Below are positions 1 through 6,880 of a stretch of 64,000 nt of DNA, one piece after another (the first letter of the stretch is position 1; every line of letters begins with the position of its first letter). The position numbers and the translations under genes were made by a program. The notes under the pieces are model-generated. The model did no database searches. It was given only the letters and a program-made list of their open reading frames with translations, and had not been told where the DNA came from. Origin of the DNA: Candidatus Latescibacterota bacterium (GTDB lineage: Bacteria > Latescibacterota > UBA2968 > UBA8231); contig OZ241889.1 in the NCBI GenBank assembly GCA_965203355.1, positions 3,232,001 to 3,296,000 on the forward strand. Reading direction: 5' to 3'.

Positions 1-281
1 CCGCCAATGGCAACCGAGTGCTTGGTAAAGGTGTGCGGAAAGGCCACGATCTTTTCCAACCGTTTTAAAAAATCCTGCAAGCGTGTAACGGCCAACGCCT
101 CGTTTGCCAACGACGACTCCTTGCCGGCAAACTCCATAAAGTCCTCCTCGAAAGTCCGCTTAAAATGCTCAAAAGCCTCATTCTCACTCGGCTTCTTGCT
201 GAGCAGATTGGTAATCAAGGCGTACTTTTGCTGCAAAACCTCCAAGTCTGCTTTGGTGCGCTCGTACTCTGTGCGGCTCAT
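1..281 (-). CDS. Third dynamin-like GTPase of the operon, N-terminal part only (runs off the window edge)
   Basis: Not in the ORF track. ATG at 281-279 overlaps the TGA of 278..2524 (ATGA coupling). Translates MSRTEYERTKADLEVLQQKYALITNLL...FPHTFTKHSVAIGG, open to the edge; the last residues look like the beta-strand entering a G1 P-loop. Confidence 0.7.
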   Translation of the reverse strand, partial: MSRTEYERTKADLEVLQQKYALITNLLSKKPSENEAFEHFKRTFEEDFMEFAGKESSLANEALAVTRLQDFLKRLEKIVAFPHTFTKHSVAIG

Positions 282-2524
282 GGGTTCACCTCCATATTAT
301 CCAGTTCGCCTTTAACAGCACTAATTCTCTTTAGCTCCATTTCCTTGTTTTTAACGGAGTTCTCAAGCGAGACCAGCTCTCTTTGGTATCGCTCTAGTAG
401 CTGCTCTGCCAAGGAATATTTGCTCATTTCTTCTTCTAGAGATTTGACGTATTTATTTATCTCACCCCTCAATTCATCTACGAATTCACCGATATAGACA
501 TTCGCCTCATTAATAAATTTTTCCGCGGCTTTTTCTTTCAACAAGCCTTGGGACCGTAGAGATTTCGGCAGCTCTTTTGAGTAACTAAACTCTGAGATAG
601 TTATGGCGTTGACAGTGCGCCTGGCCACTCTCCTTATCATCGCGGCATCCAACTGATCTTCGTCAAAACTCTCTCGCAACTCTTTGGTAGCGGATTTGAG
701 GACATCGCTACGCCACTCTTCCTTTTTTTGTTCTGCCAATTCACCGAGAGAATCCGTCAAGTTTTGGTGGAATTCCGACAGCCCACTTAAAAAGGTACCT
801 GTGCGGATGGTTTTATATTCCACCTGTTTGTATTCAGGGCTTCCCCAGAACTTCCACCAAGGCTTCTCTATTTCCACCCGTCCTTTACCTATACCTGTCG
901 CCTTATCAAGAGCCTCCTCCAAAGCTTCTTTGCTGAGTTTACGCAAGGCTTCCTTTTTCAACTCGCTTATAACCTTCTGAATAGACTCTTGATATCCCAA
1001 GCTGACGTCCTCAGAAGCATTGCTGAGATTAGTTTTCAAAGCCTCTCTCTTCTTCTTAATGGTCTGAACATCTTCGCGTTCAATGTTATTTTGCATCTCC
1101 TCGACATGGTCGGACAAACCAGTGCGTAGAGCGCGAAGAGAACGGTGTTTGCCCTGGACGTAATTGCCAATCCGATTCTTGAGAATCTCCTCTTTCTTCG
1201 CCCGCACCTGTTCGACGATCGCCTGAATCGTCGACATATTGGCCAGCTTGTCCAAATTGCTCTTCGCCGATTGCTCATTCGAGAAATAATCTGGATACTC
1301 CCTCTGCAAACTGCTCCACACATGAACCATCCCTTCGTCCCAGCCCTCCTGCTGTCCAAAGCGTTGCTTCATACTTTCGCAAAGCCCCGCCGAGTGGATA
1401 ACCCTGCTCTGACCTTCAATCAACTGGTCATAGGCATCTTTCACCTCGGGATTACTTTCTTTGAGATCCTCGATAACCTTTTTCAAGTGGTGCCCAAGTT
1501 CTTGGGTGATAGCGTTCAACACGCGATCTAGCTGTCCGTCGTTTTCTACCTTCATATTGCTAAACATTTGGGTATCTACTTGGGCCGCCACGACATATAG
1601 CTCTCGGACGCCCTCCTTGCTGGTAATTCGGTCCATCAGTTCCATATCTTCGTGAGAAATAAACTGACCCGCCGGACTGACGACTAGCACCACGTCGCAT
1701 TTGCTTAAATACTCGCGGGTGCGCGCCTCACGCGACTGAATCGGATCGTTGATCCCGGGGGTATCTACGATCTGTATGTCCTTTAGGTTGTCTTGCGGCA
1801 GCAGGATGTTGACGCTCTTGGTAAAAGGCATGTATGGACCATCGGCACCCACGTACTCCGCCAGTTGGCTTTGCAAATCCGCCAGACCGCCCGACAAATT
1901 CAGCACCTTACTTTTGCCCAAACTCCCAATGGACGTATTGCTGTTGTCGATTTTCTCGCATTGCTCGTAAGACGACGCGAGAACGGGATTTTTATCGCGT
2001 ATCTCCCTTGTTGCTCGACGCTGCGCCTTTTCCTTGTCCTCAGTTGTGTGGCCTGCTACTTTTCTCACCGCCTTCCCAAGTCTGCTCTCTCCTTTCTCCA
2101 AAAGCTCATCTAAAAGATCACGCACGCGCTCCTGCACTTGCTTTTCGTAATCCCGAGCCTGAGCCTTCATATCCTCAATATCCGCAGGAGTAAAAAACTC
2201 CACTTCCGCCTGTACCGAATCCCCGTGCGAAAGGGTCGTCAAAGCAGCCGTCATTGGGGTCGCCGCCTTGGGCAAAATGCTCTGTCCCTCGAAGACCAAG
2301 GCGTTCAAAAGCGAGGACTTCCCCGACTTGACCCGCCCGACAATACCAATCCTCAGCAACCGTTCATCATCTTCAATCTCGGCCAATTCGGCTTGCAGTT
2401 TCTTGGCTGAGGGGATGCTGTGCGTTTGGTCCAAACTTGTTGCTTCATCGCCGAGAAGATCGCTGTACTTATCAACGACCTGATCCAGCTTTTCGCGGTA
2501 TGCTACAATGCCAATATGTTCCAT
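278..2524 (-). CDS. Dynamin-like GTPase (bacterial DLP), 748 aa
   Basis: G1 IGIVGRVKSGKS, G2 TPMT, G3 DTPG, long helical/coiled-coil C-terminus; RBS AGGAG upstream. Confidence 0.9.
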   Translation of the reverse strand: MEHIGIVAYREKLDQVVDKYSDLLGDEATSLDQTHSIPSAKKLQAELAEIEDDERLLRIGIVGRVKSGKSSLLNALVFEGQSILPKAATPMTAALTTLSHGDSVQAEVEFFTPADIEDMKAQARDYEKQVQERVRDLLDELLEKGESRLGKAVRKVAGHTTEDKEKAQRRATREIRDKNPVLASSYEQCEKIDNSNTSIGSLGKSKVLNLSGGLADLQSQLAEYVGADGPYMPFTKSVNILLPQDNLKDIQIVDTPGINDPIQSREARTREYLSKCDVVLVVSPAGQFISHEDMELMDRITSKEGVRELYVVAAQVDTQMFSNMKVENDGQLDRVLNAITQELGHHLKKVIEDLKESNPEVKDAYDQLIEGQSRVIHSAGLCESMKQRFGQQEGWDEGMVHVWSSLQREYPDYFSNEQSAKSNLDKLANMSTIQAIVEQVRAKKEEILKNRIGNYVQGKHRSLRALRTGLSDHVEEMQNNIEREDVQTIKKKREALKTNLSNASEDVSLGYQESIQKVISELKKEALRKLSKEALEEALDKATGIGKGRVEIEKPWWKFWGSPEYKQVEYKTIRTGTFLSGLSEFHQNLTDSLGELAEQKKEEWRSDVLKSATKELRESFDEDQLDAAMIRRVARRTVNAITISEFSYSKELPKSLRSQGLLKEKAAEKFINEANVYIGEFVDELRGEINKYVKSLEEEMSKYSLAEQLLERYQRELVSLENSVKNKEMELKRISAVKGELDNMEVNP

Positions 2525-2598
2525 TTTACTTCTCCTTTTAGATAACGTCTGGTACTCTCTTGAGTGGGAGATGCTTCGCTGCGTTCAGCATCGCTGGT

Positions 2599-4296
2599 TT
2601 AGGTGAAAATCGCTTGCTGGGCCTGTGAGCGAATGGTATCGCGAATGGTGGTAAGCTCGGCGATGGTCTGCTCCGTATTGCTCTTTTCGTCTTGCTTGGC
2701 TTGCTCGGCCGCGGCGATTTGGCTCCGCCTCTCTTGGATATGCGAATCCAATGCCTTGGCCTGCTCGTCGATCAAAAGGCTCACCTGCTCCTCGAAATGC
2801 TTGGGCAGTTCGCTGCGAATTTTGCTCTTGACATCCGGGATTACCGTTCCAATCAACTGGTCTCGGATTTGCTGCTCTTGCTTCCTCTTCTGAAAGCGGC
2901 CAATAATTTCGGGCAAGAAGAACAAAGCGAGCCCCAAGATGGGTTGTAAGAGGGTAATGGTCAGCGTGGTGACCACAGCGCGGTACATCCACTTTGTTTG
3001 TGAACTGGTGCCTCTCCCGAGGATTTTGTCCACCTCAGGCAACCCTCCAACTTTCGCCGCCAACTCTTCAGAGTTTGCGCCCGAGTACTGGCCCAAAACC
3101 GAGTCCATATTGAGACGGCCGACCAAATCCTCCTCAATTTGCCGGTGTAGCCGATCCATCGCCTCCTCCGTATGTCTCACAAGCGATGTGCGGACGATTT
3201 CCGACACTTCACGGTTTAGCGCACTTTGGGCGTTTTCTCCGCTGGACATAGCCAGCTTCGTTAGGTCTTCTACGGCCGCTTCCAAATCCGCGCCGACCCC
3301 TTCCACAATGGTGTTGACCCGGCTGGTGGAATACCGCGTGCGAATGTCTCGAATCATCTCTTCCTTTTGGCTCTGCAATTTCTGTAGATCGGCGGCAAGT
3401 TCGTCGATGGCCTCTTGGTTTTCCCGTGAGTCCCGTTGCAGTGCGCTGATACACGTGTTCAGGCTGCCATCGAGTTCCAAAGAGTGCGACTCCAAGCGGG
3501 AACCCCACCGCTCGGCGAACAGCTTTTCTGGATCGATGGCCTTGAGCATCTTGGCCAAGGTCTCCCCGCCATCCATGCCCAAAGTCTCAACAGGCGCGGA
3601 AAGCTCAAAGTCATCCTTTAGCCGATCCTGGATCTTGGTGGCAATCTCTTGGACCTCGGTGGGCGCACGCAGATTCGCCTTGCTTAGGAACACGGAGAAC
3701 TCCTTGCCGACCTGGTGGATTTCGGATAGCTGCCGCTCGATGGAGCGCGTGAGAGTCCCCTCCTCCACGCTGGTCAAGCCCACGTAGTAGCTTCCTTTAT
3801 TGAGGTAGGTCAAAATGGCGCGGTGATGTAAATCCCACGGCGCGTCAAAACCCGGCATATCTACCAGCACCAAGGGGAGAATCCTGTGCAGGGACTCGCT
3901 ATTGAGAAAGACCCGCACATATTGGTATTGGCGGGCGCGCGCTTCGTCGTTGTGAATCGCATCCAGCTCCTCAAGGGCGAAGCGGTCCGCCTCCCCATCC
4001 TCCTTGACCGCCTCGATATACTCGCTTGCCGAATGCCGCAGCTCGGTCGCCAACGCAGTCTTCGGGTTAATGCCCACTGGCAGGCACTCAGAGCCTAAAA
4101 AGGAATTGATCAAGGTACTCTTGCCCGCACTAAAAGCCCCGACCACCGGCACGATCAGCTCGGCCTCGGCCAAGTTTTGCTTTAATGGCTCTATCGACTG
4201 GATGTTCTTTTCTATCGCCTCCATAGAGCGGGCTTTGCTCAATTCGGCTTTGACTCCATCGAGATAAGCGAGAAACTGTTGTTGCGTCTGTAGCAT
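2599..4296 (-). CDS. Dynamin-like GTPase (bacterial DLP), 565 aa, with hydrophobic membrane paddle
   Basis: G1 VVGAFSAGKS, G3 DMPG, G4-like SKAN; hydrophobic segment AVVTTLTITLLQPILGLALFFLP; RBS GGGAGG upstream. Confidence 0.9.
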   Translation of the reverse strand: MLQTQQQFLAYLDGVKAELSKARSMEAIEKNIQSIEPLKQNLAEAELIVPVVGAFSAGKSTLINSFLGSECLPVGINPKTALATELRHSASEYIEAVKEDGEADRFALEELDAIHNDEARARQYQYVRVFLNSESLHRILPLVLVDMPGFDAPWDLHHRAILTYLNKGSYYVGLTSVEEGTLTRSIERQLSEIHQVGKEFSVFLSKANLRAPTEVQEIATKIQDRLKDDFELSAPVETLGMDGGETLAKMLKAIDPEKLFAERWGSRLESHSLELDGSLNTCISALQRDSRENQEAIDELAADLQKLQSQKEEMIRDIRTRYSTSRVNTIVEGVGADLEAAVEDLTKLAMSSGENAQSALNREVSEIVRTSLVRHTEEAMDRLHRQIEEDLVGRLNMDSVLGQYSGANSEELAAKVGGLPEVDKILGRGTSSQTKWMYRAVVTTLTITLLQPILGLALFFLPEIIGRFQKRKQEQQIRDQLIGTVIPDVKSKIRSELPKHFEEQVSLLIDEQAKALDSHIQERRSQIAAAEQAKQDEKSNTEQTIAELTTIRDTIRSQAQQAIFT

Positions 4297-4438
4297 GTTG
4301 ATACCTCCCTAGGTGGTGATGTGCAGACCCGGACATGGCGCACAAAGCAACCAAACGACGACTTTGCCGGATGGAGCACACGGGTACGCTACGGTGCCGC
4401 GAAAAATTCGGTTTTCTTGGGGTTAAGTTTTGCAGCGA

Positions 4439-4628
4439 TCCCGCATCTTCTCTTAAACGAGGTTGACGTTGCAGCCCCCTCGGGGGCCGGGCAGTGTCTA
4501 ACTCACGCAAGTTTTGATGCGGGAAGTTCCTACTTATTCGCAGAGCGGTTAGGAGCTACCTAGCCACTTTGCATAGGCTATTGTATTCAGCAGGCCACCC
4601 GACATGGGGGGCTTGCATGAGTTAGACG
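4439..4628 (-). ncRNA. Candidate structured leader RNA upstream of the dynamin operon (family unassigned)
   Basis: 16-bp inverted repeat 4496-4511/4612-4627 enclosing three hairpins, plus 9-bp perfect pairing 4516-4524/4439-4447 crossing that stem; begins just downstream of a predicted promoter. Confidence 0.45.
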
Positions 4629-4634
4629 GGCTTA

Positions 4635-4663
4635 AAGATATATAAGCCATTGCAGGAATACAA
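4635..4663 (-). promoter_or_regulatory. Predicted sigma70 promoter of the dynamin operon
   Basis: -35 TTGTAT (4663-4658), 17-bp spacer, -10 TATCTT (4640-4635) in an AT-rich intergenic region. Confidence 0.5.
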
Positions 4664-4784
4664 TAGGAAGACAAGAAGATTTTAGTTCGGAGAGGCACTT
4701 CGCAAGAGCTTCAAAACGCACCGCTAGCTAAATCATTATAGATGATATATGGCGGGCTGGGACTGTGGCCCAAGTCTAAAGCCA

Positions 4785-5780
4785 CTAAGCCTTGGGCACC
4801 TTCACCACCTGCCCGGTTTCCCAGCTTTCGATGAGTGCTTCAATCACGAGCTGCACCCGCAAGGCGTCCGCCCCTTTGGCATCCACCTGCTCAGGTGGAA
4901 CTTGGTTTAGCAAATCGTCGATCCACGCGTTGATCCGCGCCGGAAAGGTATCCGCAAAACCGCCCATGCCCCCGAGGTGATCGTAGCTTTCCACCTCGCG
5001 TGAAAAGCGCGGGTAAAACGTCAGCTTCTCGCAGGCTTCGTTGATGATGATCCGCCCCTCCGAGCCGACCAATTCCAAGGTCTCCAAGCCGTAGCTTCCG
5101 CCGGCGTCGTACGACCCCGTTAAATGCCCGATGACGCCATCCTCGTACAGCAGATTCGCCTGCACATTGGACCAAATTTGCCGACCTTTGCCTTTCTTAA
5201 AAAAGGCGTGTACCCGATCCACCCCGCCAGCGAAATAGCTCATCACGTCCAGTGAATGGGGATGCAGGGCGCGGATGTGGAACCACGGACTTGATTCGTT
5301 GGGATTGTTGATCCACATGGTCATGTTGACCATCTGCAACGCGCCGAGCCGCCCGTTAGTCAGCCATTCCTTGGCTTTGACGGCCGCCGGCGTAAAGCGG
5401 TGGTTCAGGTTGATTCCGTAGGGCAACTCTTTTTCGGCGGCCAAGGCCACCATCTGGCGCGCCTTGGGAATTTCATTGGAAATCGGCTTCTCGCCCAACA
5501 CCGGAATGCCGGCCTGCAAAAGCGCCATCGTCGGCTCGTAGTGATCGCCCCCGTTCTCCACCCCCGCCGTGGTCACCGAGCAGGCGTCGAGCCGCAGGCC
5601 GCTGGCGACCATTTCCTCGACCGAGTAAAAGGCCCGCGCCCCATAGGACGCAGCCGCTTGGTCCGCTTGTTCTTTAATCATATCGCACACGGCGACGACC
5701 TTTGCGTTTTCGTGTGCCGTGTAGCAACGGGCGTGATTATTGCCAATTCCACCCATGCCGACAATCCCAATGTGCAGCAT
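4785..5780 (-). CDS. Gfo/Idh/MocA family oxidoreductase
   Basis: Start refined to ATG 5780 (MLHIGIVGMGGIG, Rossmann) with GGAG RBS; EKP motif. Confidence 0.9.
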   Translation of the reverse strand: MLHIGIVGMGGIGNNHARCYTAHENAKVVAVCDMIKEQADQAAASYGARAFYSVEEMVASGLRLDACSVTTAGVENGGDHYEPTMALLQAGIPVLGEKPISNEIPKARQMVALAAEKELPYGINLNHRFTPAAVKAKEWLTNGRLGALQMVNMTMWINNPNESSPWFHIRALHPHSLDVMSYFAGGVDRVHAFFKKGKGRQIWSNVQANLLYEDGVIGHLTGSYDAGGSYGLETLELVGSEGRIIINEACEKLTFYPRFSREVESYDHLGGMGGFADTFPARINAWIDDLLNQVPPEQVDAKGADALRVQLVIEALIESWETGQVVKVPKA

Positions 5781-5815
5781 TGCAAACTCCTTGTTGATTT
5801 TGAATTGCGAAACTT

Positions 5816-6880
5816 CTAGCCGGCCACCGGCCTGGGCAGTTCCACGCCCAGCTCGGCCGCCAAGGCCCGGATCTCGGCCCAAGCCGTCTCATCCACGTAC
5901 AGACCATCGCGCCGCCGCGCCTGCAACCGCTGGTGCGCCCGCTCGCCCGGCAGCCAGACCTCGGCCACGCCGGGCGCGGGCGGACACGACTTGACCCATT
6001 CGACAAAGGCCGCGACCTCGGCGTAAAATTCGTCCAACGGCAAAAAAGCCGCAACATTGAGCACGGCGATAAACAGCGCGTTCCCGGTGCGCTCGGGCGC
6101 TTCTTGCGTCATCCCAGCCCCGGAAAGCGACCCGGCCAAAACATCGACTAGCGCGGCAAGCCCGTAGCCCTTATGCCCGCTCTGCGGGAAACCGAGCGGC
6201 AAAATGGCACCAGCGGGCGGGCCGTAGTACGCATCCACACTCGTCGTCGGGCGGCCTGCTGAGTCGATCAGCATTCCGGGCGGGGCATCCTCGCCCCGGT
6301 TGTGCCAAAGCCGCATATCGCCGCCGGAAATCATGCTCGTCGTCATGTCGAGAATTACCGGCCACGGGCCGCTGGTGGGAATGCCGCAGCAGATCGGATT
6401 CGTCGGCAGGCGACGGCTGCGGCCACCAAAGGGCGCCACCGCCCCATCGCCACCGTGCCCGTTAGCCGCGATGAGCGCAATGCAGCCGACGCGCGTAGCG
6501 ATTTCGGCGAAACGCCCCAGCCGCGCTACGTGATTGCAGTCGCGCACCCCGACGACCGCCACCGCACCGTCGCCGAGCTTGTCCAGCGCCCAGCGCACGG
6601 CCTCGGTGGCGGTCACCGGACCGTAGTTCCACTGGCCGCTCAGCCGCCCGCCGCACTGGCTCTCGTCCAGCACGACCAACTCGGCTCCAGGCTCGACTTG
6701 GCCCTCGCGCACCATGTTCGCGTATTGGGGCAACCGCAACACGCTGTGGGTATCGTGCCCCATCAGCCCAGCTTCGACCAAGTGCTCGGCTACCAACGCC
6801 GCATCGTCCGCCGGGACGCCGACCCGCCGCAAGCAAGCGTGCGCCAGCGCATCGAGGTCTTCAGCCCGCAACGTGGGCAC
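5816..6880 (-). CDS. Ldh_2 family (malate/L-lactate/sulfolactate) dehydrogenase
   Basis: GHDTHSVLRL, TNPI, LDMTTS and GHKGYGL motifs. Confidence 0.9.
   Translation of the reverse strand: MPTLRAEDLDALAHACLRRVGVPADDAALVAEHLVEAGLMGHDTHSVLRLPQYANMVREGQVEPGAELVVLDESQCGGRLSGQWNYGPVTATEAVRWALDKLGDGAVAVVGVRDCNHVARLGRFAEIATRVGCIALIAANGHGGDGAVAPFGGRSRRLPTNPICCGIPTSGPWPVILDMTTSMISGGDMRLWHNRGEDAPPGMLIDSAGRPTTSVDAYYGPPAGAILPLGFPQSGHKGYGLAALVDVLAGSLSGAGMTQEAPERTGNALFIAVLNVAAFLPLDEFYAEVAAFVEWVKSCPPAPGVAEVWLPGERAHQRLQARRRDGLYVDETAWAEIRALAAELGVELPRPVAG

Follow-up and report, generated by a model that had tools for sequence, protein, structure and literature searches.

The c-di-GMP-I (GEMM) riboswitches carry their aptamer domain in the 5′ leader and occur in several to many copies per genome, ahead of varied genes whose products are often exported or placed at the cell surface. 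GEMM-type riboswitches have conserved unpaired nucleotides and form alternative pairings with the sequence that follows the aptamer. Orphan riboswitch candidates and structured leaders found by comparative genomics (Weinberg et al. 2017, PMC5737381; Narunsky et al. 2024, PMC11109978) are recognized by covariation and by their position upstream of genes, and have no known ligand. A literature search found no publication on noncoding RNA of Latescibacterota and no regulatory RNA described for this phylum. A motif from Latescibacterota was not found in the riboswitch and structured-RNA literature outside its supplements, where such a motif could be listed, and the main text of a 2026 preprint on noncoding families (10.64898/2026.10.21.760802) has no occurrence of 'Latescibacter'.

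The RNA described here lies in a Latescibacterota genome, within a stretch of 64,000 nt that was analysed as a whole and is called the window (contig OZ241889.1, positions 3,232,001 to 3,296,000). It lies in the gap that separates an oxidoreductase gene from a run of three dynamin-like genes, and its conserved extent is ~148 nt plus a 3′ hairpin, window 4628–4472 on the minus strand. This segment is probably one copy of a new family of structured 5′-leader RNAs that is present in part of the Latescibacterota. The family was previously uncatalogued and is well supported. The features of the locus are collected in Table 1.

Table 1. Features of the locus, listed from upstream to downstream on the minus strand; positions are those of the window.
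Feature	Position	Strand	Description
GFO/IDH/MocA oxidoreductase gene, upstream	4785..5882	−	In L001 and L002 the orthologue lies immediately next to dynamin gene 1
Gap upstream of dynamin gene 1	4297..4784 (488 nt)	−	Holds the structured RNA
−35-like TTGTAT	4658..4663	−	Family motif position; putative promoter
−10-like TATCTT (TAnnnT)	4635..4640	−	17 nt after TTGTAT; putative; start expected near 4627–4630
Conserved RNA core, model R1 positions 1–148	4482..4628	−	130.2 bits, E 1.4e-31
P1 5′ strand	4613..4627	−	11/11 outer and 4/4 inner P1 pairs compensatory in 98 distinct copies
Segment X (GUCGGGUGG), pseudoknot 5′ strand	4595..4603	−	Nearly invariant; CGGG can alternatively pair with Y, giving P2
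J3/4, conserved internal-loop strand (UGAAUACAAUA)	4579..4589	−	7 columns at least 95% conserved, 98 copies
P6 hairpin UAGG-UAGCU-CCUA	4550..4562	−	4/4 pairs compensatory
J4/3, conserved internal-loop strand (GAAUAA)	4534..4539	−	4 columns at least 95% conserved
Segment Y (CCCGCAU), P2 3′ strand	4517..4523	−	Inside the 9-mer 4524–4516
P1 3′ strand	4496..4510	−	Inverted repeat and R1 mapping
Segment Z (CUGCCCGGC), 3′ tail, pseudoknot 3′ strand	4486..4494	−	Last 4 nt also form the base of the next hairpin
Hairpin Z:W	4472..4489	−	7 bp, loop CGAG, no U-tract behind
Decayed translation-start region of the module	4436..4471	−	Aligns with the ribosome site and ATG of L114 and L115
Spacer to dynamin start	4297..4435 (139 nt)	−	Without family conservation and without unusual fold
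Dynamin gene 1 ribosome-binding site AGGGAGG	4304..4310	−	Read from the sequence
Dynamin-like gene 1	2599..4296	−	565 aa; Dynamin_N E 7.5e-19; ATG at 4296–4294
Dynamin-like gene 2	278..2524	−	748 aa; Dynamin_N E 9.8e-22
Dynamin-like gene 3, start only, leaves the window	3..281	−	Over 86 aa, 67% identical to the N-terminal part of the third L001 gene

Among 31 homologues of dynamin gene 1 the residue M1 is invariant, and the closest homologues, ~61% identical, are from Latescibacterota. PADLOC models gave weak, partial matches to this gene (LeoA, E 1.2e-11; LeoBC, E 3.9e-10), and the LeoA and LeoBC models gave no match to dynamin gene 2. The third dynamin-like gene of L001 (L001:7944–10022) combines Dynamin_N with C-terminal ankyrin repeats. 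A paralogue of dynamin gene 1, P0059, is 47% identical to it and suggests a second dynamin locus in the genome of the window.

The fold of the window copy is framed by a 16-nt inverted repeat, 4496–4511 with 4612–4627, the arms of which lie 100 nt apart and are 94% complementary; the sole mismatch is a G–U pair on the minus strand. This repeat, identified as a 16-bp stem in the preliminary description, is helix P1 of the family. In the family fold a 15-bp P1 closes the structure, and nested helices P3–P6 are arranged around a highly conserved internal loop. A 351-nt stretch folds more stably than its shuffled versions on both strands (minus strand, z −3.50; plus strand, z −2.97), in keeping with the comparison to shuffled controls that had been proposed. 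The earlier proposal of a multi-stem leader of ~330 nt was borne out for its structured part, which is real but measures ~160 nt; the stretch 4290–4500 folds like its shuffles (z 0.06). The GC hairpin at ~4472–4489 is present. Other details of that proposal have to be given up. The hairpin placed at 4525–4557 conflicts with the covarying helix P3, which in the window pairs 4590–4594 with 4529–4533. The local hairpin placed at 4594–4611 is not conserved, its segment pairing instead with 4517–4523 or, with covariation, with 4486–4494. The supposed repeat ACCC(G)GACATGG is a 10-nt, two-copy match of 90% (4329–4338 and 4598–4607), of which, by our own estimate, ~5 such pairs are expected by chance per 600 nt.

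Compared with the family fold, the window copy has two mismatches in P4. In a contig ~95% identical to it, found in another run, one of these mismatches is a standard pair, the order oxidoreductase, RNA, dynamin is kept and the hairpin is strengthened. Other contigs match only the conserved segments 4474–4492 and 4576–4603 and have different flanks, a sign that one further copy may exist. An 11-nt perfect inverted repeat (4578–4588 with 4656–4666), which is possibly due to chance, has as one arm the conserved loop strand GAAUACAAUAG; its other arm, 4656–4666, overlaps the −35-like TTGTAT and therefore probably lies outside the transcript.

Relatives of the gap sequence were found by BLAST in the five genomes behind loci L001–L005, as stretches of 122–151 nt with 72–79% identity. 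They lie at one to three other places in each genome and cover the interior of the long stem and the GC hairpin. A MAFFT alignment of nine copies yielded the nested fold, with compensatory changes in 15 of 38 pairs. A covariance model, R1, was built from the window copy and eight relatives. With R1, copies were detected in 61 of 150 sampled Latescibacterota genomes, at 1–14 per genome and mostly full length, and matches occurred in 34 of the 75 genomes of the family to which G001 belongs. The 64-kb window holds exactly one copy. Three other phyla gave no match: those of G152 (86 sampled genomes), G153 (101) and G154 (151), whose loci bear the titles Calditrichia, Fibrobacteraceae and Bacteroidales, respectively. 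A search of window 3800–5300 against Rfam 15 gave nothing beyond two hits at chance level, with E 8.1 and 9.4, which both fall on the GC hairpin. For eight diverse members of the family, no Rfam match with an E of 1 or below covered the RNA.

For enlarged alignments, 108 further copies were fetched. In the first 35 copies, 96.8% of the cells were paired and 21 of 38 pairs showed compensatory changes. In 98 distinct copies the paired fraction was 93.6%, compared with 38–51% when the partners were slid, and compensatory changes were seen in 34 of the 38 nested pairs; none of 500 shuffles reached the observed values. Because these two alignments (A5 and A6) were fitted to the structure of the model, they favour it. 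The MAFFT result and the pseudoknot described below were not fitted to R1 and are therefore independent of it. G–U pairs are frequent, and this fixes the strand of the RNA, which in the window is the minus strand. Together with the Rfam result, the covariation upholds the earlier suggestion of an undescribed structured minus-strand RNA with a pseudoknot or switch.

The pseudoknot consists of 9 bp between GUCGGGUNN in segment X (window 4603–4595) and NNGCCCGGC in segment Z (4494–4486). The invariant part of X is GUCGGGU. Across the family, 97.3% of the pseudoknot cells are paired, versus 26–46% with the partners slid, and double changes number 54 at one of its pairs (six pair types) and 39 at another (five pair types). 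R1 was built without the pseudoknot, so that the covariation of X with Z is independent evidence for this pairing. The alternative partner of X is segment Y, and the X:Y pairing (helix P2) and the X:Z pairing are mutually exclusive. The four core pairs of P2 are 93.7% paired in the 98 copies and show zero double changes, since X never varies; P2 may not form. Of the 28 columns that are at least 95% conserved, 19 are unpaired in the nested model and lie in X, in Z and in both loop strands. Segment Z is in turn shared with the 3′ hairpin, by at least 3 nt in 115 of 125 copies.

Segment Y has a second potential partner. The 9-mer 4524–4516 is perfectly complementary to 4447–4439, as had been noticed before, and this complement falls inside the decayed start region 4436–4471. 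The duplex of the window Y segment with the 90 nt downstream reaches −18.1 kcal/mol (z −5.6 against 30 shuffles). Over 131 copies, duplexes of Y and the joint behind it with the 90 nt past the hairpin give a mean z of −1.39 against shuffles of these 90 nt, and 34% of the copies lie below −2. In a test for downstream mimicry of the P1 5′ strand, the 3′ strand of P1 was moderately complementary to the sequence behind it (mean z −1.09; median rank 35 of 131), a weaker signal than that of Y, and in the window copy this strand is at random level (rank 89). For both strands, the complementarity to the start region is a statistical signal. There was no sign in the window that the ribosome site of the dynamin gene is sequestered, as judged from the fold of 4290–4500.

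Promoter-like motifs precede the RNA at a fixed distance. Of 137 distinct copies, 109 have a TTG that begins at −35 to −33 and 113 have a TAnnnT that begins at −12 or −11, so that the transcript would begin at the first base of P1. A generic sigma-70 promoter scan returned 0 sites, and the family-wide motif positions were used instead. They agree with the start near 4628 that had been predicted for the window. At the other end of the RNA, a 3′ hairpin of at least 5 bp is found in 125 of 137 copies, and one of at least 7 bp in 92 of 137 copies versus a shuffle mean of 12.3 (maximum 20). A U-tract, defined as at least 5 U in the next 8 nt, follows the hairpin in 0 of the 125 copies, and an attenuator based on an intrinsic terminator was therefore rejected. 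A scan for the terminator consensus found no site in the 4297–4784 gap, both hits lying outside it. As no terminator is present, attenuation is a less likely mode of action than an effect on message stability or on the start of translation.

The first downstream ORF is co-oriented with the RNA in 122 of 145 R1 hits and mostly starts 35–70 nt past the end of the model. Among downstream ORFs of at least 150 aa, 73 of 75 are co-oriented. The first downstream ORF lies on the opposite strand in 23 of the 145 hits, and most of these ORFs are short and may not be genes. This arrangement bears on the reading of the RNA as a stand-alone small RNA gene, which would be driven by a promoter of its own, terminate at the GC hairpin and work in trans, its position ahead of the dynamin operon being incidental. 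The promoter-like motifs and the stable 3′ hairpin would suit such a gene, as would the U-run found ~70 nt further on in the orthologous group L094–L111. However, none of the hairpins is followed directly by a U-tract, the confident downstream genes share the orientation of the RNA almost throughout, and the clustering of their starts so close behind it leaves little room for a second promoter. No terminator-type hairpin precedes the U-run of the L094 group, which for the same reason was also rejected as the terminator of an attenuator. We regard a separate small RNA gene as unlikely.

The genes behind the RNA are of many kinds. Of 140 non-duplicate first-downstream ORFs, 45 have Pfam matches, and these are very mixed. 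They include repeat proteins (WD40, LRR, Sel1) and peptidases (S8, M8), nucleases and DNA enzymes (MunI restriction enzyme in three cases, UDG-like, HNH), as well as dockerin, collagen, fn3, CsgG, outer-membrane barrel, Rce1-like, DUF1232 and BtrH_N-like domains. Dynamin_N occurs once among the 140, in the window only. The only trend comes from a crude hydropathy test, in which a hydrophobic N-terminus was seen in 45 of 64 proteins encoded close behind the RNA and in 42 of 151 neighbouring ones. No common metabolic theme that would point to a ligand was seen among the 140 ORFs. The genes for MunI-type restriction endonucleases in L085, L087 and L118, from three genomes, begin ~20 nt behind the RNA hairpin. 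In five copies from different genomes (L080:1700–1740, L081, L086, L088 and L093), the RNA is followed by a tiny conserved ORF of 7–9 codons, MF(MF)KN.F.-stop, preceded by the ribosome site AAAGGAGAG. It may encode a leader peptide. The main genes beyond it differ, among them UDG-like, outer-membrane barrel and DUF7424 genes.

Many copies ahead of unrelated genes would also be expected of a self-cleaving ribozyme or another catalytic RNA that processes the 5′ ends of many messages. The pseudoknot and the very conserved unpaired nucleotides fit such an RNA, and so does its occasional location on mobile DNA. Against it, no Rfam ribozyme family matches, and the complementarity of the Y segment to downstream sequence, which resembles an expression platform, is not expected of a ribozyme. 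A catalytic RNA is thus a distinctly improbable reading.

An association with mobile DNA is seen in single cases. In G071, four copies of the RNA (L139–L142) lie within a repeat of 2,766–2,768 nt (locus positions 535–3302) that is 100% identical between the copies; besides the RNA, this repeat contains an IS1-family transposase gene and an unknown ORF of 210 aa. In L080, 120 nt separate the end of an IS110-family transposase gene from the RNA downstream of it. These two cases indicate that the module can ride on mobile DNA. A bridge RNA of the IS110 type was considered and rejected, as an IS110 transposase, that of L080, accounts for just one of the 16 proteins flanking the first eight loci (8 upstream, 8 downstream) and the loops of the RNA are conserved, not variable.

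A different matter is whether the sequence is itself nothing but a mobile DNA element, such as a MITE, a REP or a mobile promoter cassette, with inverted repeats that mimic a stem and no function as RNA. Such an element would account for the multiple copies, for the absence of the sequence at the syntenic site of L001 and L002, and for the G071 repeat. Yet copies that are just 72–79% identical have kept 34 of 38 pairs by compensatory changes, many of the pairs are G–U, which would be mismatches in DNA, and the internal pseudoknot covaries. No target-site duplication is seen beside the arms, and the window holds no second copy. Covariation rules out a mere DNA repeat, and recurrence as a MITE or REP, which the preliminary description had named as a possible refutation, was not what we found; we consider a purely mobile element very improbable.

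Comparison with related dynamin loci suggests how the RNA came to its present place. L001 and L002 have the same gene order as the window, namely Ldh_2, GFO oxidoreductase and three dynamin-like genes, but in both loci the dynamin ATG follows the oxidoreductase stop after only ~36 nt. R1 matched in none of eight related Latescibacterota dynamin loci, and the gap sequence showed no similarity to any of 79 dynamin loci. In L004 (L004:3390–4000), a gap of ~600 nt before the dynamin gene consists of sequence that is GC-rich, palindromic and repeat-like and has no relation to the RNA family. In L003 (L003:3431–3847), a DUF6883 gene of opposite orientation immediately precedes the dynamin gene. A search of the PLSDB plasmids with the gap sequence returned no match.

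Downstream of the RNA, the window retains what appears to be the module's own start region. In an alignment of four sequences, judged by eye, 4436–4471 reads GAAG...ATCG where L114 and L115 have a ribosome site and an ATG, which implies that the start region has decayed. A blastn comparison of the window's downstream region with L115 gave a match of 21 nt (95%, E 0.013). When both flanks of the RNA (4297–4481 and 4629–4784) were searched by BLAST against all fetched loci, the single match was one of 21 nt to L115; tblastx of both flanks was empty, and there is thus no trace of a decayed protein gene. The spacer 4297–4435 has no blastn or tblastx relatives among all fetched loci. The window RNA sits 185 nt from the dynamin ATG.

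The RNA precedes many kinds of genes in many copies and is therefore not a dynamin-specific part. The idea that it serves a dynamin defence system, either as an RNA component or as a dedicated regulator and perhaps in the manner of a retron, is scarcely credible: it draws on the position directly ahead of three dynamin-like genes, on the weak resemblance of dynamin gene 1 to PADLOC LeoA/LeoBC and on a long end-pairing reminiscent of retron RNAs, but the RNA is missing from all 8 related dynamin loci, only 1 of 140 first-downstream ORFs is a dynamin gene and no reverse transcriptase is encoded among the window genes or the neighbours scanned. A component of LeoA/LeoBC-type dynamin defence was rejected on the same counts. 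The specific link to dynamins and defence drawn in the preliminary description, and with it the likeness to retrons, accordingly falls; the conservation upstream of homologous operons on which that link depended is lacking, and L001 and L002 have only their short gap at this site. Covariation across the family copies and the search of Rfam, on the other hand, both came out in favour of a new RNA.

The most likely reading is that the dynamin operon of this lineage received, by insertion upstream of it, a new switch-like leader RNA that acts in cis. The promoter-like motifs and the orientation of the genes suggest that each copy has a promoter of its own and that the RNA makes up the first ~160 nt of the message it precedes. 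The switch would consist in a competition of the pseudoknot X:Z with P2 (X:Y) and with the hairpin Z:W. Strands set free in this way (Y, W or the 3′ side of P1) could pair with the region of the ribosome-binding site and set translation or message stability, and the trigger would be a ligand or a protein. In the window, a module of ~450 nt, comprising the promoter, the RNA and the remains of its own start region, appears to have been inserted between the oxidoreductase gene and dynamin gene 1. Judged from the sequence, the inserted module now probably supplies the promoter and a ~330-nt leader of the dynamin operon, so that the earlier designation of the RNA as the 5′ leader of this operon probably holds for this genome.

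What the leader RNA senses can be stated only with reserve. A ligand-sensing riboswitch is possible, if doubtful, and a leader bound by a protein is about equally tentative. In a wider proposal, which we likewise offer as speculative, the family is a riboswitch class or the target of a dedicated regulator, and one signal acts through the toggle between pseudoknot and hairpin to co-regulate exported and repeat proteins and some nucleases, with the dynamin operon recruited by insertion. If this were true, the regulon would comprise WD40, LRR, ankyrin and Sel1 proteins, secreted peptidases and outer-membrane proteins.

To our knowledge, no member of the Latescibacterota is both cultured and genetically tractable. 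The RNA family marks a set of genes that is probably under common control, many of them for exported or repeat proteins, and it offers an aptamer candidate for ligand screens together with a regulon to read. It also corrects the idea of a dedicated RNA in dynamin defence-like operons, and the window provides a case of a regulatory module that has moved ahead of a new operon.

Among known systems, retron msr-msd RNAs resemble the window RNA in that a long pairing of the RNA ends encloses internal hairpins. The window RNA differs from them in that no reverse transcriptase gene is adjacent to it, in the window or among the neighbours scanned, and in that its internal fold and pseudoknot are conserved as in an aptamer. 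It resembles the orphan riboswitch candidates cited above in that the Latescibacterota RNA is likewise defined by covariation, by its upstream position and by having no known ligand. In comparison with the GEMM riboswitches, the family has no match in Rfam 15, where such classes are included, and no terminator, and among the sampled phyla it was found in one only. In its general design it resembles them, being an aptamer-like leader domain that has conserved unpaired nucleotides, is present in many copies, precedes varied downstream genes and may form alternative pairings.
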